Position numbers and translations under genes: made by a program
Assembly (NCBI GenBank): GCA_039920285.1
Contig: JBDSDX010000001.1
Location: 300,001-332,000, forward strand
Source of the DNA: Candidatus Saccharimonadota bacterium
GTDB lineage: Bacteria > Patescibacteriota > Saccharimonadia > Saccharimonadales > Saccharimonadaceae
Direction of reading: 5' to 3'
DNA length: 32,000 bases
Shown: positions 213-28,120 of the stretch, piece after piece
Position numbering within the stretch: position 1 is the stretch's first letter
Layout: the number at the start of each line of letters is the position of its first letter
The notes under the pieces: model-generated
Told to the model about the DNA's origin: nothing
Database searches by the model: none
Seen by the model: only the letters and a program-made list of their open reading frames with translations

Positions 213-213
213 T

Positions 214-9459: not shown

Positions 9460-9497
9460 TACCGAAACTGCTATAATACGCTCATGGTAATACGATC

Positions 9498-10456: not shown

Positions 10457-10458
10457 CA

Positions 10459-10487: not shown

Positions 10488-10508
10488 TTGAAATGCTTTC
10501 TAACGTAT

Positions 10509-10585: not shown

Positions 10586-10593
10586 AATAAAGA

Positions 10594-10626
10594 ACATCCC
10601 TCGATCGCTACCAGGGGTGTTTTTTA
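10594..10626 (+). terminator. Rho-independent terminator after tRNA-Lys
   Basis: Stem acatccct/aggggtgt (one G-U pair), 11-nt loop, T5 at 10621-10625. Confidence 0.65.
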
Positions 10627-10660
10627 TTTGGAGTTCATATTTATTTGTCATGCTAGGTAG

Positions 10661-14100: not shown

Positions 14101-14119
14101 TATATCGTATAATGAGGCT

Positions 14120-14503
14120 ATGTTTCTGGTGGGAATGATCTCGTGGTGGTATGGCGCAGGCTATAAAGGGCAATTTAACCGTGTTCGGTATCGGTTACTC
14201 TCGACGGCTGGCTTTTTTTCGATTGGACAATTATTCAAGACTTTCTTTTCACCGTTTCGTCAGATTTCAGCTGAAAGGGTCGATGGATCGATCATGGTTG
14301 TCGTTCGGGCATTTTTTGATCAACTCATTTCACGTATCATTGGCTCAATTGTTCGTTTCTTTACGATCATTTTTGGTATCATTGCTATCGTTTTCCAATC
14401 AGTATATGAGCTGATTATTCTGATTGTCTGGTTATTCCTTCCGTTATTTCCGGTTGTCGGTGTTATTATGTTCGCGATTGGATGGGTTCCAAAATGGATG
14501 TAA
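14120..14503 (+). CDS. Hypothetical small membrane protein, overlaps the start of the AAA+ gene
   Basis: 127 aa with hydrophobic helices at the N- and C-terminal ends. TATAAT (14108-14113)-N6-ATG. Its 3' end overlaps the next ORF. Confidence 0.55.
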   Translation: MFLVGMISWWYGAGYKGQFNRVRYRLLSTAGFFSIGQLFKTFFSPFRQISAERVDGSIMVVVRAFFDQLISRIIGSIVRFFTIIFGIIAIVFQSVYELIILIVWLFLPLFPVVGVIMFAIGWVPKWM

Positions 14504-16905
14504 AGCTTTTTGATCCGAAGAGTCATCGTGCTGTTCGTGCTCGAATAGGGCATGCTCTTTCTCCATGGGGCGCGACGCTTGAAATTGGAGTGGCACTATT
14601 GCTGGTGAGTGGATTCGTACTGATTGGTTTTCAGAGTTCGATTGGTTGGGCATTGATTGGTTTGGCAGCGATTCCTGCGATGATTGTTGAATGGTACAAG
14701 TACGAACTTCGAGATGTGCCACGTGTGAAAGATGGTACACGTATCGATGACTTGCTCGATAGTGAAATCTTGGGTATATTGCCGCCGCAACCAACACCAG
14801 TCGATATTGCAACGGCACTCTTTAAAACGAATGGCGGGTTTTTCTTTGCTGCTCGTTTTGGTATTGGAGGTGGTTTCTTGGAACAAGTCGTTTCGAAGGA
14901 TCGTAATGACACTTCTTCTGTTTTTGAAGAAGCATTAAAAATTGCAAAGGAAACGGATAACCGGGTGACTGCTGGAGTGTTAATTTTAGCGCTCGTTCGT
15001 CAACTACGGGCTAAAAAGACATTATTGGGACATCTGCAACTTGATGAAGCAGATCTGGTCAGAGGTATTAATTGGTATCACCGACTTCACGATCTTAGTG
15101 AAGATGCCTATAAGGTCACGTACCGCGCGGGGGGCATTGGTCGCGATTGGGCATTTGGTTGGGTGCCAACTCTTTCGCGATTTGGAAGTAATATCTCTGG
15201 TACACGTTCTCTACACACGGATATACATGGCTCAGAAATTGATCAAATTATCCAAGCACTTGGTACAGGTGTGGGGAGTATCGCACTGGTTGGCCAAAAC
15301 GGAGTAGGTAAGACAGAAGTGGTGTATGAACTCGCCGGAAAGTTGATGAACCCCGCGAGTAAACTTCCGCAAAAACTACGCTATCAACAGGTATTCATGC
15401 TTGATGCTGCGCGAATCATTTCCCAGGCTGGTGAAAAAGGTGAACTCGAAAGTCTCGTGAGTCTATTGCTGTCGGAAGCATTCAGCGCGAAGAATATTAT
15501 TATTTGTCTCGATGATGCACAGCTATTCTTTGAAGATGGAGTGGGTTCGGTTGATATCAGTAATTTACTTTTGCCAATACTTGAAGGTGGTCAATTGCCG
15601 ATTATCTTGACGATGGATGAGCAACGATTTTTACAAATAGGTAAACGAAACCCGGCACTCGCAAATGCAATTACTCGTGTCAATGTCGCTCCAACAAAAG
15701 AAGACGACACCCTTCGAGTGCTACAAGATCATGTACCACAGGTTGAGTATCAGCGGAAAGTCGTCTTTATGTATCAAGCACTTCGAGAGTCTTACAAACT
15801 TGGGGCACGCTATATTTACGATACGTCGATGCCCGGACAGGCAATTACATTGCTGGCAGCGTCAGCAGAGTATGCAGAAGATGGACTGGTGACTGCACGC
15901 TCCGTTAATATGGCGATTGAAAAAACAGTTGGTGTGAAAACGAATATTGTAGACGACGAATCAGAACGCGACACACTACTGAATATGGAGACGCTTATTC
16001 ATAAACGTATGATTGGCCAAGACCGCGCAGTCAATGTCGTGTCAGACGCTCTGCGCCGTGCTCGTGCTGGTGTGCGCAACCAAAAACGACCGGTCGGTAC
16101 TTTCTTGTTCCTTGGTCCAACTGGTGTTGGTAAGACGGAACTTGCTAAATCTTTGGCGGCGGTCTACTTTGGTGGCGAAGATAAGATTATTCGTTTAGAC
16201 ATGAATGAATTTGTATCAGCCAGTGACGTCGGGCGCTTGATTGCAGATGGCGCTGACGATAGTAATAGTCTGACCGCTCGAGTTATGAAACAACCGTTTA
16301 GTGTCGTGCTTCTTGATGAGATCGAGAAAGCACACTCGAGTGTTTTGCAGACACTGCTACAACTGCTCGATGAGGGAATATTGCGCGATGTCCGAAACCG
16401 CGAAGTGAGTTTCCGTGACACGATTGTTATTGCGACGAGTAATGCTGGGTCCGACCGCATTCAAGAATATTTGAACCGTGGGTACGACTTACAGCAATTT
16501 GAAGATGCATTCGTCGATGAGTTAATGGGTAGCCAATTGTTCCACCCAGAGTTCTTGAACCGTTTTGACGAGATTATTGTCTTTGCACCTTTAAGCAAAT
16601 CTGAACTCTTGCAGGTTGTCGATCTGATTCTGGTAGAAGTAAATAATAATCTATCTGAACAAAAGATTACGGTGACGGTTGCTCAAGACGCTAAGGAATA
16701 TTTGGTTGAGGTAGGATATGATCCACGCCTCGGTGCGCGGCCAATGCGACGTGTCGTGCAGCGTGCGGTAGAGAACACTGTCGCTAAAGAAATGTTGGCA
16801 CTTAACGTTCAAGCTGGCGGAACGATTGAGATTAGTCTTGATCAGGTAAAATCAATGCTTGATAAACATAAACAAGCCGAAGCGATTATTGCAGAAAACA
16901 AATAA
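14482..16905 (+). CDS. ClpB-like two-module AAA+ ATPase with N-terminal transmembrane anchor, no M-domain and no ClpP-docking tripeptide
   Basis: D2 is canonical: GPTGVGKTELAKSLA at 16114-16137, VVLLDEIEKAH, SNAGSDRIQE...FHPEFLNRFDEIIVF, and RPMRR near the C-terminus. D1 has GQNGVGKT (15292-15315) but Walker B reads ICLDDAQ (15508-15522). Residues about 31-70 form two hydrophobic helices. An alternative start is ATG 14494. Confidence 0.85.
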   Translation: MGSKMDVKLFDPKSHRAVRARIGHALSPWGATLEIGVALLLVSGFVLIGFQSSIGWALIGLAAIPAMIVEWYKYELRDVPRVKDGTRIDDLLDSEILGILPPQPTPVDIATALFKTNGGFFFAARFGIGGGFLEQVVSKDRNDTSSVFEEALKIAKETDNRVTAGVLILALVRQLRAKKTLLGHLQLDEADLVRGINWYHRLHDLSEDAYKVTYRAGGIGRDWAFGWVPTLSRFGSNISGTRSLHTDIHGSEIDQIIQALGTGVGSIALVGQNGVGKTEVVYELAGKLMNPASKLPQKLRYQQVFMLDAARIISQAGEKGELESLVSLLLSEAFSAKNIIICLDDAQLFFEDGVGSVDISNLLLPILEGGQLPIILTMDEQRFLQIGKRNPALANAITRVNVAPTKEDDTLRVLQDHVPQVEYQRKVVFMYQALRESYKLGARYIYDTSMPGQAITLLAASAEYAEDGLVTARSVNMAIEKTVGVKTNIVDDESERDTLLNMETLIHKRMIGQDRAVNVVSDALRRARAGVRNQKRPVGTFLFLGPTGVGKTELAKSLAAVYFGGEDKIIRLDMNEFVSASDVGRLIADGADDSNSLTARVMKQPFSVVLLDEIEKAHSSVLQTLLQLLDEGILRDVRNREVSFRDTIVIATSNAGSDRIQEYLNRGYDLQQFEDAFVDELMGSQLFHPEFLNRFDEIIVFAPLSKSELLQVVDLILVEVNNNLSEQKITVTVAQDAKEYLVEVGYDPRLGARPMRRVVQRAVENTVAKEMLALNVQAGGTIEISLDQVKSMLDKHKQAEAIIAENK

Positions 16906-16939: not shown

Positions 16940-17017
16940 TGGGGCGAATGATGGGGATTGAACCCACTACCTTCGGAACCACAACCCGACGCTCTAACCA
17001 AATGAGCTACATTCGCC
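16940..17017 (-). tRNA. tRNA-His (anticodon GUG) with encoded G-1 and CCA
   Basis: The reverse complement folds as G-1 plus gcgaatg/cattcgc, D stem gctc/gagc, and anticodon stem tcggg/tccga with loop ttGTGgt. G-1 opposite C73 is the His identity element. A minus-strand TGtTACAAT box lies at 17037-17029. Confidence 0.93.
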
Positions 17018-17059
17018 AAGCATACGTTATTGTAACAGATGTAGACAGATAAGAAAATA

Positions 17060-17068
17060 TGCTATAAT
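17060..17068 (+). promoter_or_regulatory. Extended -10 promoter of tRNA-Gly
   Basis: TGcTATAAT ends 10 nt upstream of the tRNA 5' end. Confidence 0.6.
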
Positions 17069-17078
17069 CAAGTACTAT

Positions 17079-17153
17079 GCGGGCGTCGTATAATGGCTAA
17101 TATGTCTGCCTTCCAAGCAAACGATGAGAGTTCGATTCTCTCCGCCCGCACCA
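17079..17153 (+). tRNA. tRNA-Gly (anticodon UCC), CCA encoded
   Basis: Acceptor gcgggcg/cgcccgc, T arm gagag-ttcgatt-ctctc, anticodon loop cTTCCAa. The anticodon stem tctgc/gcaaa has one C-A mismatch (28:42). Confidence 0.88.
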
Positions 17154-17181
17154 ATTTTGATTTTTTTGTTATAATTAATTT

Positions 17182-17619
17182 ATGGAAAATATAAATAGCT
17201 CCGCTCAAGACCTCCTGACCGCATTGGATGCGGATACGCTAAATGATAGCAAAGTACTTTTTGAAATAATGCAACGAATAAGCAACGCTGAGCCAAAGAT
17301 ATGGAACGAACATACTTTAGGTTTTGACGAATATCATTACAAATACGAAAGCGGGCGTGAAGGCGACAACTTTATCGTTGGTTTTTACCCAAGAAAAGGT
17401 AAAATTACCGTATATCTCATGGACGGCACGGCACGTTACTCTGAATCGCTAACCAATCTCGGAAAACATACAACTACGGGGTATTGTATAAATATAAAAC
17501 GACTTAATGATATTGAGCTTCCAGTCCTTGAACGAATATTACAGTCCTCCTACGACAATATAAAGTCTAAGTCTCGAAATGGACCAATAGACCGGATATT
17601 ATGGCAAACTGAAAAATAG
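17182..17619 (+). CDS. DUF1801 (YdhG-like) domain protein
   Basis: The pattern ...IWNEHTLGFDEYHYKYESGREGDNFIVGFYPRKGKITVYLM...LGKHTTTGYCINIKRLNDIELPVLERIL matches DUF1801. TGtTATAAT (17167-17175)-N6-ATG. Confidence 0.6.
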   Translation: MENINSSAQDLLTALDADTLNDSKVLFEIMQRISNAEPKIWNEHTLGFDEYHYKYESGREGDNFIVGFYPRKGKITVYLMDGTARYSESLTNLGKHTTTGYCINIKRLNDIELPVLERILQSSYDNIKSKSRNGPIDRILWQTEK

Positions 17620-17874
17620 ACATTTATAAAAATCTCTTTGAGTAGGTTTCAACTTCAACTCATCCTGACCCTCTACTTAAGTGGCTTTTTATATATTAAT
17701 TACGGTAATGTATAAATTATTTCTATAGCTCCTAAGCCCCCACGCCCAGTCCGACTAAGCCATTGCCTAAATACTGCTGAGCTAATCTGATTTCTCTTGC
17801 AATACCTATGATTGAACGGTAATGTTGCTTTCGGAACACTTCCACTAAGGGGCACCAGAGATGAACCATTTGAG

Positions 17875-17899
17875 ACGTCAGAACTTTTCTGACGTTTTT
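17875..17899 (+). terminator. Rho-independent terminator abutting the next promoter
   Basis: Stem acgtcagaa/ttctgacgt (9 bp), 3-nt loop, T4. The T-tract runs directly into TGtTATACT (17899-17907). Confidence 0.6.
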
Positions 17900-17913
17900 G
17901 TTATACTAAAAAA

Positions 17914-18522
17914 ATGGATAAGCCCTTAATTATTATAGATCTCGATAATACTCTTGCTGCATCCGCTGAAGGTTTTATTGAGTTTAGCAACACCAACTTT
18001 GGAACGTCAATAACAATAGCCGATTACGACGAAGACAGAACTAAGACATGGGGCGTCTCTTTTGAAGAGGCAGAGCGTCGTCAAAAAGTTATGCGTGATC
18101 GCGAGAATCAGCGTGACTACAAACCGATGGAGCACGCAAATGAAGTGCTGAATTGGTTGAAGAACGATTATAAACTAGTTATTCTGACGTCACGCCGCAA
18201 GGAAGCGGAAACATATACGAATGACTGGCTAGAGCAACACTACCCTGGACTATTTGTCGATGTTATATATAGCGGTTTCTTTGAGGATGGACAAGCCAGT
18301 ACTGGTCATCTGCGTACTAAAGGGGATCAGTATAGCCGGCTGGGTGCGTCTTATGTTATCGATGATTACATGAAGCATTGTGGATCAGCCGCAGAAGTGA
18401 ATGTACAGTCGATTCTTTATGGTAACTATCCTTGGAATCGAATCGATCATTTGCCTGATGAAGTGACACGTTGTGGTAGCTGGCTCGAAATAAAAGAGTT
18501 TTTTGAGACAGTCAAAAAATAA
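17914..18522 (+). CDS. HAD-superfamily hydrolase, 5'(3')-deoxyribonucleotidase (NT5C)-like
   Basis: Motif I IIIDLDNTLA, motif II VILTSR, motif IV YVIDDY. TGtTATACT-N6-ATG. Confidence 0.55.
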   Translation: MDKPLIIIDLDNTLAASAEGFIEFSNTNFGTSITIADYDEDRTKTWGVSFEEAERRQKVMRDRENQRDYKPMEHANEVLNWLKNDYKLVILTSRRKEAETYTNDWLEQHYPGLFVDVIYSGFFEDGQASTGHLRTKGDQYSRLGASYVIDDYMKHCGSAAEVNVQSILYGNYPWNRIDHLPDEVTRCGSWLEIKEFFETVKK

Positions 18523-18559
18523 ACCATTTGCAATGTTTTGACTTCATAAACAATGCTGC

Positions 18560-18604
18560 ACCAAAGAAAAAAAGTTATCCCTGTGATAACTTTTTTTCTT
18601 TGGT
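18560..18604. terminator. Bidirectional terminator with a perfect 20-bp stem
   Basis: accaaagaaaaaaagttatc (18560-18579), loop cctgt, gataactttttttctttggt (18585-18604). The A and T runs lie inside the arms. Confidence 0.7.
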
Positions 18605-18652
18605 ATGAGTTGGTTGAGACTTGAACTCTCATCGTGACGAGTGAAGTGAGCG

Positions 18653-18745
18653 GATGAGAGTTCGATAGCAAGGAGCAGGGCAGGAAAGTTTACTTTTCTG
18701 AACGCGACGCAGATATATCTTTAGATATTCTCTCCGCCCGCACCA
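18653..18745 (+). pseudogene. tRNA-Gly 3' fragment (T arm plus acceptor 3' strand plus CCA) interrupted by a 60-nt insert
   Basis: 18653-18666 plus 18727-18745 together reproduce the last 31 nt of the tRNA-Gly at 17079-17153. There is no matching 5' acceptor strand (gcgggcg) upstream. Confidence 0.6.
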
Positions 18746-18767
18746 CGGCTCATGCTACAATTTAGGC

Positions 18768-19166
18768 ATGGTTAAAACATCTGCGATCCCTACGCTTGAG
18801 AACAATATTGGGGCACATTCAGATACACTGGCTTTAGCAGTTGTGGCAATCATTTTGGCGGCTGTATCATTAATTCCTTGCGCATTTCTTTACATTCTTC
18901 GTTTCATTGATGGTTCAACACACACACTTGGGTATGAATTCATTATTCCATCAGGAATTGGGATTATATTAATGGCAACATTGGCACCTCTAATTTGGAT
19001 TGTTGCATTGGCTTTGGCGATTGCATCTATGGTTCGTTCACAAGCTCGGTGTCGCACAATCGTGATTTCTAGTATTGCAATAGCGATTGTGGTTTTTGGG
19101 CTCGGAGCAACCGTCCTTTTCTTTTTGGGAACTTATTTAGGCAATAGTATACCCGACCAGCATTGA
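18768..19166 (+). CDS. Hypothetical membrane protein (about 4 TM helices)
   Basis: Hydrophobic helices throughout. TGcTACAAT (18753-18761)-N6-ATG. Confidence 0.55.
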   Translation: MVKTSAIPTLENNIGAHSDTLALAVVAIILAAVSLIPCAFLYILRFIDGSTHTLGYEFIIPSGIGIILMATLAPLIWIVALALAIASMVRSQARCRTIVISSIAIAIVVFGLGATVLFFLGTYLGNSIPDQH

Positions 19167-19211
19167 ACCTTGGAGAATCTAAAGCATCTTGCAGTATGAT
19201 ACAATCCAATT

Positions 19212-19520
19212 ATGGCAAAAACACGTTCTAAGATGGCGATCGTATTGCTTGCAACCTTGGGTATCACTCTAATAATCATCGGTGGTAGCATAATGATATT
19301 AACACTTGGCAGCCTACTGTTCGCCTTACTAGGCATTACGGAGGTTGATTTAGCAGAAACGGCCGGATCATCGGTTGACCCCGTGCCTGTTTGGGGTGGT
19401 TTCTTGATTGGAGCAGTGATTGGTTTTATGGTTCTCTTTGGAGGTATAGGTATTTTTGTGGAGCGCAAGGGTAGAACAACAGGAACGAAGCAGAAGATAC
19501 CAGAATTTCCAAAATTTTAA
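19212..19520 (+). CDS. Hypothetical membrane protein (about 3 TM helices)
   Basis: Hydrophobic helices and a basic C-tail. TGaTACAAT (19197-19205)-N6-ATG. Confidence 0.55.
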   Translation: MAKTRSKMAIVLLATLGITLIIIGGSIMILTLGSLLFALLGITEVDLAETAGSSVDPVPVWGGFLIGAVIGFMVLFGGIGIFVERKGRTTGTKQKIPEFPKF

Positions 19521-19576
19521 TTTATTTTTTCTCAGAGAAGGTCGCTACAAGTGTCCATAAGCGGTATAATAAGGTC

Positions 19577-21751
19577 ATGAGATTAGTCGCTCGTCTTTTT
19601 GTTGTTATCATCATGAGCTTTATTGTCGTCGGAGTTGGGCTTGCCCTTCAGCGTCAGGTTTCGGCCGTTGCTCCTCCATACAACTGTACAGCTGATGGAA
19701 AATTCGCATCACCATCTCAAGGATCAGCGCTTTTAACTATCGGCGATCAAGCGAAGATTTCATCAGCATCTGCTTGGATCAAAAGTATGACGCACACACG
19801 GACAAGCACGGTTACTGACAGTACGATTACACCAGACAGTGATTATGCCCCTAGTTATCAGGGACTTACAAGTGGTACTTTCCATCTTGATGGACGGAGC
19901 TTTTCGACAAACGCTTCTATTTCGGTTAGTTCTCCGGCAACAGTCACTGACGCGTATCGGGGAGTGATCTCGGGACAAGTTCTTGAAACACCTTCGTCAT
20001 TTCGTTGGATTATCCAAGCCTATAAACGTGAAAACGGAGTCATATCACAAGTTCCTGTTCAAGCTCTTGCCGACGGAACAACCGGTAACTTCTCGATCGA
20101 CTTGTCATCAGTAGACCCATCAACGAATGGTGAATGGATGTTGGGATTACTTGATGCCAATGCTGGCTATGCACCGTATGGATCAAAATGGCCAGATGCC
20201 GAATACGTCGGACTTGAGGTTCAGCAATATGTCATCACCGATACGCTTTATTATTGGGCAACGACCGCAGCTATGGCTAACGGAACATTTACATTCCAGA
20301 ACTCAAATACTGGATCAAAATTATTTAGATTAGTTGATACAACGACGAATCCGGATGATATTCTTGCTGAATATGTAAAACCGACAGGGTTGGTGCGTTC
20401 GTATGCATATCAATCTGGTGAAACGGGGTATGGTACGGCAGTTGAAGACCGAAGCTTTGCCTACGATCAAGCAATGGCGCTCTTTGCTGCGATAAGTGTG
20501 GGTGATAGTACGCTTGCAAAGCAACTTGTCGGTGGGCTACTCAATCTACAAACACAAGCAGGACCACATGCGGGAGGGTTTGTGTTTGCTGCTCCCCAAC
20601 TGAGCCCGACCTATACTGATATGCTGTACCGAATAGGTGCGCATGCGATCGCCACTGATGCATTATTGGCGTATATCGAAACGTATCCAAATGATGCAGA
20701 TATCGCTAGTTATAAAATCGATGCCGAGAATGCGCTCAGTTTTATGCAGACGACCTTCTCATCAACCGGACAAACCTCAGGATTGTATCTTGGAGGGTAT
20801 GGGCTATATAGTGGAAATCCTCAGACCTTCGATGACAGCTATGTTATCGACTGGGCTTCAACGGAACATAATATAGATGCCTGGCATGCTCTCATGCGGG
20901 CCTCGCGTGTGCTTGGTAATACGGTTACTGATTACCGCAGTATGGCTGATCAGCTCGACGCTGCTGTTAGTCAAAAATTATATAACACGACAGAACAGCG
21001 ATTTAACCAAGGGGTGGATGCGGGCGGTCAAGATGTCTCTGATCCGCTCGATGTGAATAGCTGGGGATCGATTCAATTGTATGCATCAGGTAAACCTGAA
21101 CGTGCGGAAACATCGCTTGCGAGACTTTCGTTATTTGAGAACACTCGCAGTGGCATTACGGGTTACGGTGCTTTTTACGATGCCGGGGGATACCCGGGTG
21201 CCGCGCCTACTATATGGTTTGAGGGATCTTTTGGCGCCGCTCTCGCGTATTACAAGAATGGTGATTATACCGCATATCGTACTCTTATAGATCAACTCAT
21301 ACCTGCTCAAGAAAACGATGGGTCTTTCCGCTACGCGACCGATCCTGACACGACATATGATATTGGAACGAGTAAGTCGGTTGCAAGTACTGCCTGGTAC
21401 GTTGTTGCAACTGCTGGGCGAAATATACTTTGGAATACTTGTGTCTATACTCCTCCGGTAGTGCCTTCGAACCCAACGCCAGTTGTCACTTCACCGAGCG
21501 ATAATTCATCTCATGGCACGAATAAGAATAGTCAGATTACTCAAGAAGATCTTGGCCATTCGTTTGTACCCGAGACGGTGAAAAATACACCGATAGAATC
21601 ATCAAACCCAGAACAGCCAAGCAGTACGGCCACGGAACAAAATGATAATAAAGATTCAGCAACGATACCGTGGATAATTATTGCAGGGGTCTCAGGTCTC
21701 GTGGTGGTTGGCGTCGGAGTCACTATTGGTATCATCCGAAGAAGACTGTAA
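19577..21751 (+). CDS. Large secreted, C-terminally membrane-anchored protein with a putative (alpha/alpha)6 six-hairpin toroid domain (possible glycan-active enzyme)
   Basis: N-terminal signal or anchor (VVIIMSFIVVGVGLALQRQVSA). The central region shows helical-hairpin signatures (SFAYDQAMALFAAI, STEHNIDAWHAL, WFEGSFGAALAYY, QENDGSFRYA). A P/S/T/N linker leads to a C-terminal TM helix plus RRRL. TATAAT (19565-19570)-N6-ATG. Confidence 0.5.
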   Translation: MRLVARLFVVIIMSFIVVGVGLALQRQVSAVAPPYNCTADGKFASPSQGSALLTIGDQAKISSASAWIKSMTHTRTSTVTDSTITPDSDYAPSYQGLTSGTFHLDGRSFSTNASISVSSPATVTDAYRGVISGQVLETPSSFRWIIQAYKRENGVISQVPVQALADGTTGNFSIDLSSVDPSTNGEWMLGLLDANAGYAPYGSKWPDAEYVGLEVQQYVITDTLYYWATTAAMANGTFTFQNSNTGSKLFRLVDTTTNPDDILAEYVKPTGLVRSYAYQSGETGYGTAVEDRSFAYDQAMALFAAISVGDSTLAKQLVGGLLNLQTQAGPHAGGFVFAAPQLSPTYTDMLYRIGAHAIATDALLAYIETYPNDADIASYKIDAENALSFMQTTFSSTGQTSGLYLGGYGLYSGNPQTFDDSYVIDWASTEHNIDAWHALMRASRVLGNTVTDYRSMADQLDAAVSQKLYNTTEQRFNQGVDAGGQDVSDPLDVNSWGSIQLYASGKPERAETSLARLSLFENTRSGITGYGAFYDAGGYPGAAPTIWFEGSFGAALAYYKNGDYTAYRTLIDQLIPAQENDGSFRYATDPDTTYDIGTSKSVASTAWYVVATAGRNILWNTCVYTPPVVPSNPTPVVTSPSDNSSHGTNKNSQITQEDLGHSFVPETVKNTPIESSNPEQPSSTATEQNDNKDSATIPWIIIAGVSGLVVVGVGVTIGIIRRRL

Positions 21752-21774
21752 ATTGGTGCGACGGGGCAGGTCCT

Positions 21775-22554
21775 CTATTTCATTACTTCAGAAATAATTG
21801 CTTTATACACCGCATAGGCATTGTCTTCATTCTCTTTTGATGCGCGAGCATAATGTTCCATCATGACACCATCATTTACTTCCAGAACCATGAGTCGTCC
21901 ATCTTCAAGTTCAACAATATCAACAGCACCAAGCTGTAAATCGAGCGCATTGAAAGCTTTTTTTGCGAGGGCGTTTATTTCTTCGCTAACGACAGTATTT
22001 TTTGGCGTGGCACCAAGTCCAAGGTTAAACATCCGAAGACCATTGATCGTGACTGCTTCTTTTTCGTATGTAAGGAGGATTTCATTCTTTAAAACAATCA
22101 GGCGAATTTCACGCTTAATATTAACAAACGGTGAGACAGCCCAAGCATCACTGTCTTGAGACTCTATCCACTCAGCGGCCTCTGATTCACTATGGAATAA
22201 CTGTACATTGTGACCGCTAGTCCCAGCGAGTGGTTTAACGACGATATCATGCCAGCCGTTCTGTTGCCATTGGCTGTACGAGATAACTTTTGTTCGAGCG
22301 AGAGCGTGGGGGATAGCGGGAACATTATGGGCGGAAAGGATAGTATACGCGACGACTTTATCTTCACTACTTAATGCTGCGACGCCATTATTTAAATCAA
22401 ATTTGTAACCTATGATCCGGTGTGTGACTTCATTTTTCGTAAGCTCAAGTAACCAGTTGTCTGAATAGGACGCGTACTCAATACCAAGTACTTGGCAGAT
22501 ATTCTTGATAGTTTTCACTATCCAGCGGTCTTTAATGTATTCCCCGATAGGCAT
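21775..22554 (-). CDS. Compact ATP-grasp ligase (RimK/glutathione-synthetase-like core, no pre-ATP-grasp domain)
   Basis: DIVVKPLAGTSGHNVQLF, REIRLIVLKNEIL, FNLGLGATP, GAVDIVELEDGRLMVLEVNDG. TATAAT (22567-22562)-N7-ATG on the minus strand. Confidence 0.7.
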   Translation of the reverse strand: MPIGEYIKDRWIVKTIKNICQVLGIEYASYSDNWLLELTKNEVTHRIIGYKFDLNNGVAALSSEDKVVAYTILSAHNVPAIPHALARTKVISYSQWQQNGWHDIVVKPLAGTSGHNVQLFHSESEAAEWIESQDSDAWAVSPFVNIKREIRLIVLKNEILLTYEKEAVTINGLRMFNLGLGATPKNTVVSEEINALAKKAFNALDLQLGAVDIVELEDGRLMVLEVNDGVMMEHYARASKENEDNAYAVYKAIISEVMK

Positions 22555-22606
22555 GACGTGTATTATACCTCTGTTTTGGTAGTGTTTGCTATATAATGAG
22601 TCATAC

Positions 22607-22683
22607 GCCCCGGTAGCTCAGTTGGATAGAGCAGAGGACTTCTAAGCCTAAGGTCGCAGGTTCAATTCCTGCCCGGGGTACCA
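22607..22683 (+). tRNA. tRNA-Arg (anticodon UCU), CCA encoded
   Basis: Acceptor gccccgg/ccggggt, D arm gctc-agttggata-gagc, loop cTTCTAa, T arm gcagg-ttcaatt-cctgc. The anticodon stem gagga/gccta has only 3 Watson-Crick pairs (G27-A43 and A31-G39 are mismatched). TATAAT lies at 22592-22597. Confidence 0.85.
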
Positions 22684-22704
22684 CGTTTGATTCATGGATA
22701 TATA

Positions 22705-22740
22705 TAGACCAAGTTTGAAATACGAACTTTGGTCTATTTT
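22705..22740 (+). terminator. Rho-independent terminator after tRNA-Arg
   Basis: Stem tagaccaagtt/aactttggtcta (one bulge), 9-nt loop, T4. The T-tract runs into TGtTATGAT (22740-22748). Confidence 0.65.
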
Positions 22741-22754
22741 GTTATGATATAGGC

Positions 22755-23087
22755 ATGGAATTTACAAAAGTAAAAATTGTTACATTTGTGCCGAGTGAGA
22801 ATGCAGATGAAATTCGTCAAGCCTTAGGTGATGCCGGGGCGGGTCAGATTGGTGAATATAGTTTTTGTAGTTATACAGTTGTTGGTAAGGGAAGATTCAC
22901 GCCATCACGTAATGCAAATCCGCATATTGGTGAAGTAGAAGTACCAGAAGTTGTTGATGAAGAAAGAATAGAAGTTATATGCGAACGTTCAAAAGCGAAA
23001 CTGGTGATTAATGCGTTAAAGAAGGCTCATCCTTACGAAGAGGTTGCTTTTGATATTTATTCTTTGATCGATGAGTCGGAACTATAA
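22755..23087 (+). CDS. Stand-alone PII-like domain protein of the YqfO/NIF3 insert family (COG3323-like)
   Basis: 110 aa. The pattern VKIVTFVPSENADEIRQALGDAGAGQIGEYSFCSY...GKGRF.P...ANPHIG......E.RIEV...HPYEE.AFDIY matches this family. TGtTATGAT-N6-ATG. Confidence 0.6.
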   Translation: MEFTKVKIVTFVPSENADEIRQALGDAGAGQIGEYSFCSYTVVGKGRFTPSRNANPHIGEVEVPEVVDEERIEVICERSKAKLVINALKKAHPYEEVAFDIYSLIDESEL

Positions 23088-23187
23088 GCGATCATCTTCC
23101 AGGTTTTGTTCAACGTCAGAGTATTCATTTCATTCTAGCCTCCACCAAAGTGGCGTATCGTTTCCAGCATTTTGTTATGATGAGTGC

Positions 23188-23790
23188 ATGACTATATACA
23201 AAACAATCTTTTTTGACTGGGGTGGCGTCGTCGCAAATGATCCAGGTGACGACTTTCTTAATGCATTGCTGCGACAGCTAGGTGCATCAGATTCTCAAAT
23301 TGATGAGATCTTTCAAAACTATATGCCACAGTTTATGCGCGGAGAAATAACCGAAATTCAATATTGGGCTATTCTTAAAGATACATACGGTTTTAAAATT
23401 CACGATTCTATTTCTGAAGAGTTTAAAAAATGGAAAGGCCTTGTCGCAAATGAAGATATCTTACATTTTGTTGCTCGGCTAAAAGCTAAAGGATATCGAA
23501 CGGCAATTCTCTCGAATGTCATTGAGCCAACCTATAATGTTTTGAAGCAGGCGGGCTACTATGACATGTTTGATGAGATTATTGCCTCATGTAAAGTTGG
23601 ATATGCCAAACCGCAAAAAGAAATTTACGAGTTAGCACTAAAACAATTGAAAACGACAGGGGCAGAATCAATATTCATTGATGATAAACAAAGGAACCTT
23701 GTGCCTGCTAAGGAAATGGGTTTTGAGGTTGTGCTTGCTGTTGACCCTGACCAAATTATTTCAGACATTGATGCTCTATTGATTAAATAG
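23188..23790 (+). CDS. HAD-superfamily hydrolase, subfamily IA (YihX-like DxG motif I)
   Basis: IFFDWGGVV, ILSNV, GYAKPQKEIYE and IFIDDKQRN motifs. Start chosen at ATG 23188 because TGtTATGAT (23173-23181)-N6 precedes it. The ORF-track extension from 23071 overlaps the previous gene and has no homology-like features. Confidence 0.75.
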   Translation: MTIYKTIFFDWGGVVANDPGDDFLNALLRQLGASDSQIDEIFQNYMPQFMRGEITEIQYWAILKDTYGFKIHDSISEEFKKWKGLVANEDILHFVARLKAKGYRTAILSNVIEPTYNVLKQAGYYDMFDEIIASCKVGYAKPQKEIYELALKQLKTTGAESIFIDDKQRNLVPAKEMGFEVVLAVDPDQIISDIDALLIK

Positions 23791-23856
23791 TAACGCTCTA
23801 ACCCTCACAAAAGCCTTGCATCGTATTCAGTTATACGCAGACACTCATGATTTACG

Positions 23857-23884
23857 TTGAAATTGCTCATGTTTTCTTTATAAT
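23857..23884 (+). promoter_or_regulatory. Candidate promoter of the membrane protein gene
   Basis: TTGAAA (23857-23862), 16-nt spacer, TATAAT (23879-23884), 10 nt before ATG 23895. Confidence 0.5.
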
Positions 23885-23894
23885 AAAAAGCAAT

Positions 23895-24761
23895 ATGGTA
23901 AAAATAAAAAATAAAAATGTACACACACCGCTCGTTGTAACAGGGTATGTCTTATTTGTCCTTCTTGTCATCGCAACCTTACTAACGACAACTATCCCAT
24001 GGGCACAATTACTTGCTGCCAACCTTACAAAGGTGTCTCACTATAATATTGCTGTATTCTTTGTTGCATTAACAGTTGGCTCGTTGCTGCCGGTGTTAGT
24101 CGGATATCTTATTGGTGGGAGCTCTGTGAGATCAAAGAGTAAATTAAACCATCACTTTAATGGAATACTCTTTAGTTTATTAGCATTCTGGATAATGACA
24201 ATATTTGCAGTACTCGTCATTTTCCCCTCTGAATTATTCAATGCAAATCCTAATGAAAGAATCGTATTGAGTAATTTACTCCCGGGTTTTGTAGTCGCGA
24301 TTATCACGACCATTATTGCGATTGCCCATGTACACAGCCGTCAGGCTAAACATGATATTCTCAAGTATAAGTTGTTTTCAGTCCCACTGGTTGGTTCTAT
24401 TGTGGTGTTGCCTGTATGGGATCTAATCCAAAATATCATGACGAATAGTGTGAGTATTTATTCGTCTTTTTCCCTTATCATTGTGATCCTCCTTGGAGTT
24501 GTGTCTTATGCGACATTGCGAAAAACCAAATTGAATACATATGATATGGTGGCATGGTCAGCGGTTTCTATATCGGTATTTTTTGTCGCGGTATTCGTAT
24601 CATCACAGTTGGTATCTGTGGCTTCAGATTACCTCTTCTATCAACCCACCGCACAAGTATATGAGTTATTGATGTGGGGAAGTTATGCAATTGCACTTGT
24701 CGGTTGGGGTGCATATTGGATAAAGCAGGTAAAAGTAATGAGCCAAAACCGTATCAGATAA
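23895..24761 (+). CDS. Hypothetical polytopic membrane protein (about 8 TM helices)
   Basis: Repeated hydrophobic helices. Start moved to ATG 23895 (MVKIKNKN...), downstream of the promoter. Confidence 0.55.
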   Translation: MVKIKNKNVHTPLVVTGYVLFVLLVIATLLTTTIPWAQLLAANLTKVSHYNIAVFFVALTVGSLLPVLVGYLIGGSSVRSKSKLNHHFNGILFSLLAFWIMTIFAVLVIFPSELFNANPNERIVLSNLLPGFVVAIITTIIAIAHVHSRQAKHDILKYKLFSVPLVGSIVVLPVWDLIQNIMTNSVSIYSSFSLIIVILLGVVSYATLRKTKLNTYDMVAWSAVSISVFFVAVFVSSQLVSVASDYLFYQPTAQVYELLMWGSYAIALVGWGAYWIKQVKVMSQNRIR

Positions 24762-24766
24762 TATGA

Positions 24767-25828
24767 CTAATTATCTTCATCTAAACTATATGTATTATCC
24801 AACGCGGTTCGACTTTTCCTTGTATCACGTCTTTTACTTTGACGAATCATTTCAACTTTTTTCGTTGCAAGGTCAGCTAACTCAGACTTCATTTTTACAT
24901 AATTTTCGTAGTGTTTTGCTTCGAGTGTGCCGTCAGCAAGCGCGATGTTGATAGCGCAACCCTGTTCGCTCGTGTGCTGGCAGTTAGCGTATTTACAGTG
25001 ACTTGCAATCTGTGTAATGTCATCATAATTTGTATCGAGTTCCTCTTCAGTCCCCCAAAGTTGCAACTCTCGGATACCTGGTGTATCGATCAAAATACCG
25101 CCGTTTGGCAATATAAATAGTTCTCGGTGAACGGTTGTGTGCTTGCCGGAGGAATCCGATTTTCTGACACTGTCGGTTGTTTGAACATCTCTTCCGAGGA
25201 GCTTATTGGTGAGTGTCGATTTACCGACACCAGATGAACCAAGTAAGATAGCTGTTTTTCCGGGTGTAATGTGTGCTGCGATAGCATCAACACCGATACC
25301 TTCGGTAGCTATGGTGGTAATGATCGGAATATCGAGAGATTTAATTTGTTCTATATATGATTGAACATCATCAGTTTTGTCGGCTTTGTTTAAAACGATG
25401 ATTGCTTCGATCGAACTAACTGACAACTGGTATAAGAATCGTTTGAGTCGTTCAACACTGAAATCATTGTCGAGTGCAAGAAGAACGAAAGCGATATCGA
25501 CATTAGCCGCGATAATTTGTTTCACTGTTCGTTTCCCGGTAACCTTGCGTGCGATCTCGTTTGAACGAAAGATGACCGATTCAATCGTTGCATTATTATT
25601 ATCTGAAATAGCGACCGAGACCCAGTCACCAACCTTTGGAGCTGCATCTCGCTGGGTATAATGAGCAAGTTTACCTGACAACTCAGCAGTAATAATATCT
25701 GGAGTGGCAATTTTTAGAGATGTACCAAAATCAGCAATAACGCGAGCAGGGCGGTTACTGGTAACGTTTGTATCGTCCCATTCTTGTTGCTTTGCTTTGC
25801 TCCATCCGAAGTCGACAAGGTTGTTCAT
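24767..25828 (-). CDS. rsgA: Ribosome small-subunit-dependent GTPase A (RsgA/YjeQ)
   Basis: N-terminal OB domain and a circularly permuted GTPase (LNKADK then GSSGVGKSTLTNKLL then DTPGIRE). C-terminal zinc knuckle HCKYANCQHTSEQGCAI. TGcGATAAT (25844-25836)-N7-ATG on the minus strand. Confidence 0.92.
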   Translation of the reverse strand: MNNLVDFGWSKAKQQEWDDTNVTSNRPARVIADFGTSLKIATPDIITAELSGKLAHYTQRDAAPKVGDWVSVAISDNNNATIESVIFRSNEIARKVTGKRTVKQIIAANVDIAFVLLALDNDFSVERLKRFLYQLSVSSIEAIIVLNKADKTDDVQSYIEQIKSLDIPIITTIATEGIGVDAIAAHITPGKTAILLGSSGVGKSTLTNKLLGRDVQTTDSVRKSDSSGKHTTVHRELFILPNGGILIDTPGIRELQLWGTEEELDTNYDDITQIASHCKYANCQHTSEQGCAINIALADGTLEAKHYENYVKMKSELADLATKKVEMIRQSKRRDTRKSRTALDNTYSLDEDN

Positions 25829-26059
25829 TGACTTTATTATCGCATATTTCGACGAACATGTTTATTACACTACGAGATAAGAAGAATAGTCCGTATATTT
25901 TTAAATAGGTGTTTATCTAGTTCGAGTTCTATCAAATAGCTTATGCTATTCAGACATATTTATAACTTTATAGCAAATATTGTTCGTGTCTTGTATACTA
26001 CCCCTGAGCTTTTCCACCTGGAATTTGCTCACCGTGCAGTCTGTTCGAGGGAGTAAATC

Positions 26060-27484
26060 TTGACAATCCAGACAGAAGAAAAGGTCGGCGCTGTCGATCG
26101 TTTTTTCGAGATAACCAAGCGGGGCTCAACGTTCCTGCGCGAGACTAACGGAGGTGTTGCAACCTTCTTGGCCATGAGCTACATCGTTGTGCTCAACCCC
26201 ATCATCCTCACCGGTGCGCCGGTCGAGGGATACACACCGTCGTTCCACTCAGTGGCGACGGTCACGGCGTTGGTTGCGGCAATCGCAACTCTCGCCATGG
26301 GTGTGATAGGAAAGGTGCCGTTTGCTCTGGCCGCAGGCCTGGGCATCAACGGGATCGTTGCTTTCCAACTTGCTCCCATCTTGGGCTACGAAGGTGCAAT
26401 GGCTGTCGTCGTTCTCGAAGGTATGATCACGTTCTTGCTGGTAATAACGGGTATTCGGGTGGCGCTATTCAACGCCATCCCGCTCGTTCTCAAGCAAGCG
26501 ATCGGGGCCGGCATCGGCGCTTTCCTGATCCTCATCGGTTTCGTGGATGGAGGTGTCGTCAAGGGAGCTCCTTTGGCGCCATCGCTCAACCTCGAGCCGC
26601 TGAACACTTGGCCCCGGCTCGTGTTCGTACTCGTCCTCATCGCGACCATCGTCATGGTGATCAAGAAGTGGAAGGGTGCGATCATCATCGCCATCGTCGG
26701 TGGTACGACCTTGGCGGTCATTATCGAGACGTTCGCTAAGCTCGGCAGTGCGGTTGACAACCCCGCTGGTTGGGTGCTGAACGTTCCAAGCCTTGCTGGC
26801 AAGGAAGTCGTCACCGGACCTGACTGGTCGGTGTTCGGGCACTTCAGTTTCGTCAACGCATTCAGTGCTGGCCCGATCCTGTTGGTATTCTTCGTGTTTA
26901 GCTTGATCCTCGCGGATCTGTTTGACACGTCGGGTACCATCGTGGCGGTGAGTAAGGGTGCTGATCTTCTCGACGAGAAGGGAAACCCTGCGCGCTTGGG
27001 TCGAATCCTCGGAGTCGACTCGCTGGCCGCTGCGCTTGGTGGATTCGCCGGCGTTTCGTCGAACACCACCTACATCGAATCGGCGACGGGTGTACGTGCC
27101 GGAGCCCGCACGGGCTTCGCAAACGTCATTACCGCAGTCCTGTTCCTGGTGGCGATATTGCTGACACCGCTAGTTCAGTTGGTGCCGTCGGAAGCGGCTG
27201 CACCCGTGCTGGTCGTCGTCGGTAGCCTGATGGTGTGGGAGTTCGTTGGCGTCGCCGTCAAGGAACACGCTGACGAACTGGCTCTCGCGAGTGTGCTCGG
27301 CATTCTTGTCATGCCGTTCACGTACAGCATTACCAATGGCATCGGCGTGGCGTTCATCGTCTATACCGTGTCGATGGTGGCCAACAAGAAGGCGCGCCTG
27401 CTACACCCGCTGATGTGGGTAATGGCTGTGGCGTTCATCGTCTACTTCGCGCTGCCGCTTATCCGTATGTGGTTGGGGATATAG
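26060..27484 (+). CDS. NCS2/AzgA-family purine (adenine/guanine/hypoxanthine) permease, compositionally foreign
   Basis: FFEITKRGSTFLRETNGGVATFLAMSYIVVLNP plus about 12 TM helices is typical of AzgA/PbuG-type permeases. TTG start with SD GAGGGAG (26046-26052). My hand counts of G+C are 39/60 (26221-26280) and 34/60 (26641-26700), against 25/60 in apt (27661-27720). Confidence 0.88.
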   Translation: MTIQTEEKVGAVDRFFEITKRGSTFLRETNGGVATFLAMSYIVVLNPIILTGAPVEGYTPSFHSVATVTALVAAIATLAMGVIGKVPFALAAGLGINGIVAFQLAPILGYEGAMAVVVLEGMITFLLVITGIRVALFNAIPLVLKQAIGAGIGAFLILIGFVDGGVVKGAPLAPSLNLEPLNTWPRLVFVLVLIATIVMVIKKWKGAIIIAIVGGTTLAVIIETFAKLGSAVDNPAGWVLNVPSLAGKEVVTGPDWSVFGHFSFVNAFSAGPILLVFFVFSLILADLFDTSGTIVAVSKGADLLDEKGNPARLGRILGVDSLAAALGGFAGVSSNTTYIESATGVRAGARTGFANVITAVLFLVAILLTPLVQLVPSEAAAPVLVVVGSLMVWEFVGVAVKEHADELALASVLGILVMPFTYSITNGIGVAFIVYTVSMVANKKARLLHPLMWVMAVAFIVYFALPLIRMWLGI

Positions 27485-27501
27485 ATCCTGACCCGTCGGA
27501 C

Positions 27502-27539
27502 GGGGAAGTAGTGGTCATTCAATTGACCACTACTTCCCC
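27502..27539 (+). terminator. Perfect 16-bp hairpin without a U-tract (I-shaped terminator type)
   Basis: ggggaagtagtggtca (27502-27517), loop ttcaat, tgaccactacttcccc (27524-27539), followed by acacaacaacc. Confidence 0.5.
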
Positions 27540-27552
27540 ACACAACAACCCA

Positions 27553-27579
27553 AGAGGCCTTACGGGCTTCTATTTTTTT
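27553..27579 (+). terminator. Canonical rho-independent terminator
   Basis: Stem agaggcc/ggcttct (one G-U pair), 5-nt loop, then aTTTTTTT. Confidence 0.6.
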
Positions 27580-27604
27580 GAAAAAAAATTAATAATGAAT
27601 ATAT

Positions 27605-28120
27605 ATGAATTATGCAGACCACATTCGAACCATTGAGGACTTTCCAGAACCAGGTATCCTTTTTTATGACATTGCTCCGCTTTTAGGAAATGGCGCTATC
27701 TTTGCGAATGCGATTCACGATATGGCGGAGCCACTTCGCGGCCGGGTGAATCAAGTCGTCGGGTTGGATGCTCGTGGTTTTGTTTTTGGCGCTGCTATGG
27801 CTCTCGAACTAGGGGTTGGCCTAACGATGGTTCGAAAAGCCGGAAAACTCCCCGGCGAGACTATACAGCTAGACTACGCTTTGGAATACGGGACAAATAC
27901 CATTGAACTTCAAACTGACACTCTGGGGTCTAAAGACAAAGTCGTACTGGTTGACGATGTTATCGCTACTGGAGGAACAGCAGTTGCGAGTGTTGAATTA
28001 GTTCGTCGAACTGGTGCAACGATTGTTGAATTTTGTAGTGCAATAGACCTGCCTAGTCTAGGAGGGTCTGAACTCATTAAAGCAACCGACGTTCCGGTTA
28101 GATCTTTAGTTTCGTTCTAA
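27605..28120 (+). CDS. apt: Adenine phosphoribosyltransferase
   Basis: IRTIEDFPEPGILFYDIAPLL at the N-terminus and the PRPP-binding motif VVLVDDVIATGGTA. 171 aa. Confidence 0.93.
   Translation: MNYADHIRTIEDFPEPGILFYDIAPLLGNGAIFANAIHDMAEPLRGRVNQVVGLDARGFVFGAAMALELGVGLTMVRKAGKLPGETIQLDYALEYGTNTIELQTDTLGSKDKVVLVDDVIATGGTAVASVELVRRTGATIVEFCSAIDLPSLGGSELIKATDVPVRSLVSF

Follow-up and report, generated by a model that had tools for sequence, protein, structure and literature searches.

How a gene of conspicuously high guanine-plus-cytosine (GC) content came to lie in a low-GC Saccharibacterial genome, and how long it has been there, are the questions raised by a 32,000-nucleotide stretch of DNA from a Candidatus Saccharimonadota bacterium (assembly GCA_039920285.1, contig JBDSDX010000001.1, positions 300,001 to 332,000; the whole stretch is called the window below, and coordinates refer to it). 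The gene (26060-27484, + strand) encodes a putative AzgA-type NCS2 purine nucleobase permease of 474 amino acids and lies directly upstream of apt, the gene for adenine phosphoribosyltransferase. A sequence-only reading of the window had taken the permease for a horizontal acquisition from a high-GC organism, possibly the host of an epibiont, inserted between rsgA and apt. We consider a different course of events probable, namely that the permease was acquired a single time and long ago, from a lineage of the class Actinomycetes by the ancestor of a subgroup of Saccharibacteria, was fixed upstream of the native apt gene and has been transmitted vertically since then.

Composition of the permease gene

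The window as a whole has a GC content of 45%. The permease gene stands in a 1.5-kb block at 0.57-0.59 GC on a background of about 0.38-0.49, and the edges of this block are sharp. It extends from about 25985 to about 27540, beginning just after a -10-like TATACT and ending with a 16-bp hairpin, with the 5' leader and the hairpin inside and a T-run terminator outside. The gene itself has a GC content of 0.580, compared to 0.441 ± 0.029 in the 29 other open reading frames (ORFs) of the window (z = 4.8), and its GC content at third codon positions (GC3) is 0.720, compared to 0.393 ± 0.049 (z = 6.6). First and second positions are ordinary (GC1 0.60, GC2 0.42), so that the GC excess resides at the silent third positions, where both C (0.39) and G (0.33) are raised; GC3 is even along the gene. 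The tetranucleotide L1 distance of the gene to the rest of the window is 0.55, where the median is 0.263 with a robust standard deviation of 0.025 (about 11 robust standard deviations), and in codon usage the gene stands at a distance of 1.99 from the window background, where 15 other long genes average 0.82 ± 0.18 with a maximum of 1.09. Codon usage correlates with that of genes on two Actinomycetes contigs at r = 0.85, and with that of the window genes at r = 0.27. No other gene of the window is a strong GC3 outlier, and over some 150 kb of loci from related Saccharibacteria the permease family alone stands out in the same way.

Composition and codon usage of the permease are therefore atypical for the resident genome, as is expected of a horizontally acquired gene. 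The sequence-only reading had recognised this discordance, including the G/C bias of third codon positions. All four hand counts of G+C on which it leaned (39/60 and 34/60 in the permease, 25/60 in apt and 30/60 in rsgA) are exact, and the comparison of GC3, codon usage and tetranucleotides that it had proposed sets the permease clearly apart. Other sources of the high GC content were considered and rejected. Amino-acid composition is ruled out by the confinement of the excess to third positions (a native membrane protein of the window has a GC3 of 0.37), translational selection for NNC codons by the equal rise of G3 and C3, and a mosaic or partial-replacement origin by the uniform GC3 along all genes of the clade described below.

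So abrupt a change of composition over 1.5 kb could in principle also mean that an actinobacterial fragment was chimerically joined into a Saccharibacterial contig during assembly or binning. We regard this as practically negligible, because the junctions between promoter, permease, hairpin and apt recur in seven independent contigs from varied samples, among them the 795-kb contig of the window, and because the junction DNA itself is conserved.

Identity of the permease

The predicted protein is full-length and undisrupted (474 amino acids, compared to 472-520 in homologues) and matches Pfam PF00860 (Xan_ur_permease) over residues 31-395 with 81.9 bits against a cut-off of 27. A sequence search of the PDB returned only AZG1 and AZG2, the adenine/guanine permeases of Arabidopsis (E = 4e-31 to 5e-29). 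The AlphaFold2 model is free of low-confidence segments (predicted local distance difference test 90.2, predicted template-modelling score 0.88). With this model as query, Foldseek ranks AZG1 and AZG2 at the top (E about 5e-18, template-modelling score 0.70-0.77; 0.76-0.77 for AZG2), far ahead of UapA and UraA (E about 1e-8) and well ahead of SLC26. Model and length are consistent with an intact polytopic 7+7 inverted-repeat fold. The plant proteins share PF00860 and the fold with the permease, but are just 23-26% identical to it.

The AzgA-like branch of the NCS2/NAT transporters also includes Aspergillus AzgA, Escherichia coli PurP/AdeP, YicO, YjcD and YgfQ, and Bacillus subtilis PbuG and PbuO. 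Judged by its sequence and its predicted fold, the permease is an ordinary member of this branch, and Pfam, PDB and fold comparison agree with the family to which the sequence-only reading had assigned it. By family membership and pairing with apt, the substrate would be adenine and/or other purines; the pairing suggests adenine, though it is no proof. Within the gene, a perfect 17-nt direct repeat, GTGGCGTTCATCGTCTA, occurs at 27347-27363 and 27428-27444, so that VAFIVY appears two times in the protein, in the last two helices.

Actinobacterial affinity

Similarity points from the Saccharibacterial permeases to Actinomycetota. In a collection of 5.8 billion proteins the best non-self match is 68% identical, and the named matches at about 50% identity are nearly all from Actinomycetota. 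Among the best 120 matches, the named ones belong to Actinomycetota, save P0074 (Saccharibacteria) and P0114 ("Bacillus sp. AZ43", flagged UNVERIFIED_ORG). Labelled plasmid and chromid records give 42-50% identity for Actinomycetota (47% for Actinomyces oris), 39% for Thermomicrobium and about 34% for Proteobacteria and Deinococcus.

Phylogenies were computed by neighbour joining from Kimura-corrected distances over 466 trimmed columns with 200 bootstraps, and in a rooted version with four non-actinobacterial outgroups. The six closest proteins, encoded in low-GC contexts, form a group (clade S) in 200/200 bootstraps of the unrooted and 196/200 of the rooted tree. Clade S is joined by four intermediate sequences (195/200 and 172/200) and then by seven proteins that we call group A (199/200 and 175/200), and this assemblage lies inside a broad actinobacterial radiation. 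A position of clade S basal to all Actinomycetota occurs in none of the 200 bootstraps of the rooted tree. With this distance method, clade S thus appears nested within the putative donor lineage.

The members of group A with a resolved context have neighbouring genes of Actinomycetes (DUF3039, DUF3090, DUF5703, PAC2 and mshC), and the mshC adjoining a group-A permease has its best named relative, at 74%, in a Frankiaceae metagenome-assembled genome (MAG). Group-A permeases match the GC content of their own genomes, 0.66-0.68. The nearest relatives outside the Candidate Phyla Radiation (CPR) are accordingly uncultured mycothiol-making Actinomycetes, with 55-57% identity to the window permease. 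So low an identity gives no support to the suggestion of the sequence-only reading that the present host was the donor.

The Actinomycetota permeases compared (the uncultured mshC-containing group P0010 and P0012-P0017, Cellulomonas, Blastococcus, Nonomuraea and Actinomyces oris) resemble the window permease in sequence (47-57% amino-acid identity) and codon usage (r = 0.85-0.95). They differ in that their GC content fits their own genome, their called starts are ATG and they do not lie next to apt. Those examined also lack the AT-rich promoter block and the leader motifs of clade S.

The intermediate sequences bear on the age of the event. Next to the intermediate permease of locus L106 lies a gene for a queuosine-precursor transporter whose best named relatives are from Candidatus Saccharibacteria and Nomurabacteria. 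The intermediate group is thus, at least in part, Patescibacterial as well, and the acquisition would predate the split of clade S from those lineages. The cassette features of clade S described below recur in the intermediates L106 and L015.

Taken as sequence evidence, these comparisons support an origin of the permease in Actinomycetota, more precisely in the class Actinomycetes, with a direction and timing of transfer that we infer from the tree and from the distribution of the gene. The horizontal origin from a high-GC source put forward in the sequence-only reading is thereby strengthened. It is nevertheless conceivable that no transfer took place, and that an ancestral Patescibacterial gene had GC-rich codons imposed on it by a gene-specific force, its likeness to Actinomycetota being convergent or due to transfer in the reverse direction. 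The high GC3 does persist over a deep clade in an equilibrium-like manner, and the regulatory DNA around the gene is AT-rich and Saccharibacteria-like. We nonetheless judge such a history very improbable. It is at odds with the nesting of the CPR copies inside Actinomycetota in the rooted tree and with the identity gradient, as well as with a codon usage that fits real Actinomycetes genes and with the directional decay from G/C to A/T seen in two lineages. The different position of P0074 speaks against it as well.

P0074 is a second AzgA-type permease from Saccharibacteria (L014, 10001-11443, MAG GCA_028286285.1), 51% identical to that of the window. It too forms a GC island (GC3 0.78, compared to 0.47 in its neighbours) and has a perfect hairpin of 16 bp at its end. 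The distance to an rsgA gene is about 2 kb, and apt is not adjacent. In the tree, P0074 branches elsewhere among Actinomycetota, its nearest named relatives being Nocardioidaceae and Agilicoccus at about 70%. The separate placement of the two sequences suggests at least two independent gains of such permeases by Saccharibacteria.

The permease-apt pair and the age of the acquisition

The apt gene (27605-28120, + strand) exceeds the NCBIfam equivalog cut-offs (NF002636, 199 against 125; TIGR01090, 189.5 against 185.85) and is of native composition (GC 0.469, GC3 0.366). Orthologues of the permease, 58-68% identical, were found in six other contigs of related low-GC Saccharibacteria, always directly upstream of apt, so that the order permease-apt holds in 7/7 clade-S contigs (the window included; one contig is 26 kb long). 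By contrast, among the matches listed from a metagenome scan with a Saccharibacterial apt alignment, where the apts are distant (42-51% identity), 52 loci from diverse bacteria extend 1 kb or more upstream of apt, and an AzgA-type permease precedes apt in none of them. Every clade-S permease is a high-GC island, with a GC3 of 0.61-0.91, compared to 0.31-0.49 in the adjacent gene and 0.41-0.49 in other neighbours. The sequence-only reading had counted homologues confined to the same lineage at similar GC as evidence against a transfer. The closest homologues do come from the same lineage, but all of them are high-GC islands and the next tier is actinobacterial.

The upstream neighbour of the permease, on the other hand, varies: it is a tRNA synthetase gene in L009, small ORFs in L008 and L107, and rsgA in the window only. 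The rsgA gene (24767-25828, - strand; Pfam RsgA_GTPase, E = 5.6e-48) is 64-70% identical to its counterparts in five relatives, which are labelled as Saccharibacteria or Saccharimonadales MAGs in four cases and as a "Chloroflexi" MAG in the fifth, in agreement with the suspicion that the organism is Saccharibacteria-like. In five rsgA loci of related MAGs neither permease nor apt occurs within 6 kb, and none has rsgA beside apt. In L003, rsgA abuts a G5-domain gene, yet yggT is also rearranged there, so that no clean empty site is available. The proposed insertion between rsgA and apt therefore finds no counterpart among relatives: judged by gene order, permease and apt are a conserved uptake-plus-salvage unit, as the sequence-only reading had supposed, and rsgA is outside it.

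In the 26-kb contig L107, eight genes that are consecutive in the window (8548-16905) occur in collinear order with amino-acid identities of 46-86%, and next come the permease at 66% and apt at 63%. The divergence of the permease between the two genomes is the same as that of the native genes. Between a Clp-like gene and the permease the window has about 9 kb more DNA than L107, rsgA included. This extra segment (16940-25828), absent from L107, starts at tRNA-His and tRNA-Gly, contains a tRNA-Arg, has the lowest GC content of the window (0.38-0.42) and is variable or rearranged; it holds genes for a 724-amino-acid secreted or anchored protein, an ATP-grasp protein, an HAD hydrolase and a membrane protein besides rsgA. 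L107 and L008 have downstream genes in common.

The apt tree, with a group of window, L104 and L009 and a group of L107 and L008, agrees with the permease tree, L006 being the one exception. The apt of L006 (2073-2621) shares 40-43% identity with every other apt of clade S, evenly over its whole extent, and nonetheless it directly follows the permease, behind a homologous spacer. This apt seems to have been replaced while its pairing with the permease was kept. Since the pairing persists across the clade even where apt was replaced, it is likely to be under selection.

Two closely related strains behave as vertical descent would have it. In L007 and L107, which are 97% identical in nucleotide sequence, the permease differs by 2.1%, like the flanking genes; the 31 differing sites could not be polarised as recent substitutions because the outgroup is saturated. 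L009 and L010, 99.1% identical, show no differences over about 4 kb that include the permease cassette; 25 differences between them are clustered in one FtsX-like gene (about L009 12909-14288), a pattern typical of a recombination tract.

Marks of a recent insertion are likewise missing at this locus. Neither direct nor inverted repeats bracket the GC island, and no mobile-element gene, integrase or tRNA adjoins it, the nearest tRNA being 3.4 kb away; nor was an empty site found. The occurrence of orthologues throughout the clade, with the same partner and in synteny, argues for an old, clade-wide acquisition.

This evidence bears directly on the proposal of a recent host-to-symbiont transfer into the space between rsgA and apt, in which the GC content of the gene would be the un-ameliorated signature of its donor. 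The strong discordance in GC and GC3, the actinobacterial codon usage and the sharp edges of the block at about 25985 and 27540 are what such an event would leave behind, and the known hosts of Saccharibacteria are Actinomycetota (PMC12173739, PMC8406219). But no protein in 5.8 billion is more than 68% identical, and the nearest homologues in an actinobacterial context reach 55-57%. Six other contigs share promoter, leader, TTG start, hairpin and apt partner at 58-68% identity, none of the five relatives has rsgA beside apt, and the borders are free of flanking repeats, integrase and tRNA. The window copy has, moreover, already partly decayed, with 53 against 11 differences in the direction from G/C to A/T relative to its sister. 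A recent event in this genome, at the place of insertion named in the sequence-only reading, is in our estimation extremely unlikely.

The proposed single old acquisition would instead have run as follows. An AzgA-type permease would have been taken up once, from a lineage of class Actinomycetes, by the ancestor of a Saccharibacteria subgroup. It would have been fixed there, directly upstream of the native apt, as a self-contained cassette consisting of an AT-rich promoter of Saccharibacterial type, a short leader, an AGGAG-type Shine-Dalgarno (SD) sequence with a TTG start, the ORF and a long 3' hairpin without a U tract. The pair would constitute a two-step purine route, in which nucleobase uptake is followed by nucleotide formation with phosphoribosyl pyrophosphate. 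It would then have been inherited vertically while the surrounding genes were rearranged, the adjacency to rsgA being peculiar to this genome, and in the window lineage the permease would have been partly ameliorated towards the low GC content of its host.

Several points weigh against this history. The trees are distance trees, built by neighbour joining. Clade S sits on a long branch, although attraction would push it towards the outgroups rather than into the ingroup, so that its nested position is conservative in this respect. Most clade-S contigs are short (2.7-26 kb) and bear no taxonomic label, their assignment to Saccharibacteria relying on apt similarity, synteny and composition, and two of the intermediates (P0006 and P0011) have no taxonomic placement. 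With regard to function, the permease matches no NCBIfam model or equivalog. The main difficulty, however, is posed by its GC content at fourfold degenerate sites (GC4), which exceeds the neutral prediction under vertical descent and is treated in a section of its own below.

Promoter-like block, leader and start codon

The cassette begins with a conserved AT-rich promoter-like block (25943-25999, + strand) that comprises ATGCTAT at 25943, ATAGCAAAT at 25970-25978 and the -10-like TATACT at 25994-25999, with TAGCAA 17 nt before the latter. The block aligns over six clade-S loci in the pattern ATGCTTATTTTAAAAT ... AATAGCAAAT ... 17 nt ... TATACT, in which the TAG.AAAT and TATA.T columns are invariant, and ATAGCAAAT occurs once only in the window. 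A promoter consensus scan made no call at 25943-25999, and we describe the block, on the strength of its conservation, as a putative promoter.

The 5' leader (26000-26059, + strand) carries CCRCCYGG at 26014-26021, GTGCAG at 26034-26039 and the SD sequence GAGGGAG at 26047-26053, the last G of which lies 6 nt before the start codon. Both leader motifs, situated between the -10-like box and the SD sequence, are kept in clade S (L006, L104, L009, L007 and L008). CCRCCYGG could form a hairpin of 3-7 bp with an RCCY loop, for which RNAalifold gives -3.25 kcal/mol and double changes in two of four pairs; this support is weak and the informative pairs are too few, and we retain CCRCCYGG as a motif only. 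At some clade-S loci a second small hairpin has GTGCAG in its loop, again with weak structural support. Searches for known RNAs in this region were negative: at gathering thresholds Rfam finds only four tRNAs in the window, and thus no purine riboswitch or other known RNA in leader or spacer, and a permissive scan of 25830-27620 gives only chance matches (E > 0.6) to eukaryotic or viral families.

An AGGAG-type SD sequence is common to the clade-S loci, and all seven clade-S genes (7/7) start with TTG and encode an N-terminus of the form MT(T/I)Q. Both the start codon and the SD sequence GAGGGAG described in the sequence-only reading are thus present. That the permease alone in the window starts with TTG is not demonstrable, since a mechanical ORF list gives two other TTG starts, which are possibly artefacts.

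The 3' hairpin

The 3' end of the permease mRNA is marked by a conserved hairpin (27502-27539, + strand) of 16 perfect pairs with a 6-nt loop and no U tract, folding with z = -7.0. It is the element already described in the sequence-only reading. A hairpin of 16-20 bp with a related core, GGYGGCGGTC, directly follows the stop codon in every clade-S gene and in the intermediates L106 and L015. After the arms were trimmed to the folded arms and realigned, 96/96 cells pair in the 16-pair register and 10/16 pairs are changed on both sides, which none of 500 shuffles reaches, the consensus structure having been derived from the same sequences as were tested. Slid-partner controls give 38-69% pairing and at most two pairs changed on both sides. 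Among the paired cells are 13 G.U pairs, which on the opposite strand would be A.C mismatches; this strand specificity leads us to interpret the hairpin as acting in the + strand RNA of the permease transcript.

A terminator-like site with an 8-pair stem and a T7 run follows in AT-rich DNA (27553-27579, + strand). It corresponds to the U-tract terminator predicted earlier right behind the hairpin, and is a putative terminator by pattern match, in a scan whose three hits in the region are no more than in shuffled sequence (mean 2.4). A GC-rich stem with a T run after the long hairpin is present in L006, L104, L009, L106 and L015 and not in L007 and L008, so that 4/6 clade-S loci have a canonical T-run terminator behind the hairpin. 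In L007 and L008 apt follows the hairpin after about 25-30 nt, and the interval contains no other terminator. Because its position relative to the T-run terminator and to apt varies, the hairpin may attenuate or stabilise rather than fully terminate, and it is a candidate U-tract-less terminator, attenuator or stabiliser of the mRNA 3' end. The start of apt lies about 25 nt past the T run (27580-27607), with no recognisable SD sequence; apt may owe its expression to transcription that continues through both hairpins, or to a transcript that is leaderless or very short.

Intrinsic terminators without a U tract ("I-shaped" terminators) have been described in mycobacteria and other Actinomycetota. 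The hairpin is similar to these in its long perfect stem right after the stop codon, its lack of a T run and its location inside a GC-rich block, but differs in that the stem is conserved and covaries over a Saccharibacterial clade. Among five actinobacterial homologues examined, those of L013 and A. oris (L100) are followed by a long GC-rich perfect hairpin without a T run, and that of Arthrobacter (L101) by one with a T run, while L011 and L102 have no such 3' hairpin. The Actinomycetota-like style attributed to the hairpin in the sequence-only reading is consistent with the similarity to L013 and A. oris.

Persistence of GC-rich codons

According to the expectation of Lawrence and Ochman, amelioration of a transferred gene tracks the time since its transfer. 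To gauge this time we used fourfold sites of eight native orthologues of the window and L107 (698 sites pooled). Identity at these sites is 0.292, compared to 0.279 ± 0.015 after permutation, that is, they are saturated, and the G/C versus A/T states of the two lineages correlate at 0.026 (95% upper bound 0.10). Under a two-state model at most about 32% of an initial GC deviation would be left in each lineage, and a permease that started at a GC4 of 0.85-0.90 should by now have reached 0.46-0.49, or at most about 0.57. The L107 permease (0.55) fits this prediction. That of the window (0.70) is too high, and those of L104, L009, L008 and L006 (0.77-0.87) show essentially no decay. The degree of amelioration is therefore not consistent with the time since transfer.

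Where decay has occurred, it is directional. At fourfold sites, 53 differences pair an A/T in the window with a G/C in its sister L006 and 11 are the reverse, and the corresponding difference between L107 and L008 is 76 against 19. The window permease is also the most AT-shifted in amino-acid composition, with a lysine share K/(K+R) of 0.58, compared to Actinomycete-like values of 0.19-0.25 in L009 and L104. The window permease is thus partly ameliorated towards the low GC content of its host, and some of its relatives are not ameliorated at all. In sister pairs C and G are exchanged at 16-17% of fourfold sites, which implies that much of the turnover took place under GC-rich conditions. Within clade S, the identity at silent sites exceeds expectation by 0.04-0.15, with an excess of 0.10-0.15 among the pairs window-L006, L006-L104, L006-L009, L006-L008 and L104-L009. 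The highest-GC pairs of clade S versus Actinomycetes show an excess of 0.06-0.07, and the overlap of the two ranges indicates that the silent sites are near saturation.

Three readings of this anomaly remain: a gene-specific force, repeated replacement from a GC-rich reservoir, or a neutral expectation that is too simple. As for the first, we tentatively propose, while considering it rather less than an even chance, that the GC-rich codons are under active maintenance in low-GC Saccharibacteria that have diverged to the level of families. The cause could be selection acting on the stability or structure of the mRNA or on the rate of translation, or else locally GC-biased repair or conversion. 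The former would fit the conservation of the 5' leader and the TTG start and the covariation of the 3' hairpin. If true, the permease would be an acquired gene that resists amelioration, and the lineages of the window and L107 would have escaped the constraint and begun to decay.

Repeated replacement would mean that, once a first copy had been acquired upstream of apt, the ORF was overwritten several times, in different Saccharibacterial lineages, by homeologous recombination from unsampled GC-rich Actinomycetes that carry alleles of the clade-S type, and that its GC content was thereby renewed again and again. Saccharibacteria are naturally transformable (PMC10633639), and replacement would explain how a GC3 of 0.83-0.91 and an Actinomycete-like amino-acid composition (K/(K+R) of 0.19-0.25 in L009 and L104) go together with saturated silent sites in native genes, why sister pairs exchange C and G at 16-17% of fourfold sites, and why decay is so uneven among sisters (GC3 of 0.61 in L107 and 0.90 in L008). 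We still think it unlikely, as all clade-S members were found in low-GC contexts and none in a GC-rich context in the collection, and as clade S is monophyletic in 196-200 of 200 bootstraps. The leader, the TTG start and the covarying hairpin have diverged together with the ORF, and none of them occurs in the actinobacterial homologues that were examined. The uniform GC3 along each gene gives no hint of a mosaic, and permease and apt trees agree.

Other features of the window

The next-strongest tetranucleotide outlier after the permease is the left end of the window (1-1000), which has an extreme strand asymmetry (GC skew +0.33, AT skew -0.35) and no match in Rfam. An ORF on the - strand in the same part of the window (264-1073) has an odd GC1 of 0.32.

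Implications for Saccharibacteria

Saccharibacteria lack de novo nucleotide synthesis, and transposon sequencing in one cultured Saccharibacterial species found the Com DNA-uptake system dispensable for growth and fitness (PMC10633639). Purine precursors must therefore enter by another way. The permease-apt module provides a concrete candidate route of purine supply in at least one subgroup of Saccharibacteria, and the second, independent permease gain in L014 hints that the function was gained repeatedly. In the literature searched we found no description of this permease or of its composition.

The permease resembles published gene gains of Saccharibacteria in being a foreign gene that provides a reduced epibiont with a means of acquiring nutrients. 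Transfer between phyla is a known kind of event, but Jaffe et al. (2021) traced few gene originations to sources beyond the CPR and noted that evidence for lateral transfer was lacking in those pairs of Saccharibacteria and hosts that had been profiled experimentally (PMC8406219). The permease would add a well-supported gene transfer from Actinomycetota to Saccharibacteria to a record in which such transfers are reported to be scarce (PMC8406219).

The permease also carries a warning. Strong discordance in GC content and codon usage is commonly taken to indicate that a transfer was recent, but here it is found together with clade-wide vertical inheritance and with saturated silent sites in neighbouring genes. 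Either amelioration can stall for a single gene, or a hidden reservoir of GC-rich alleles exists.

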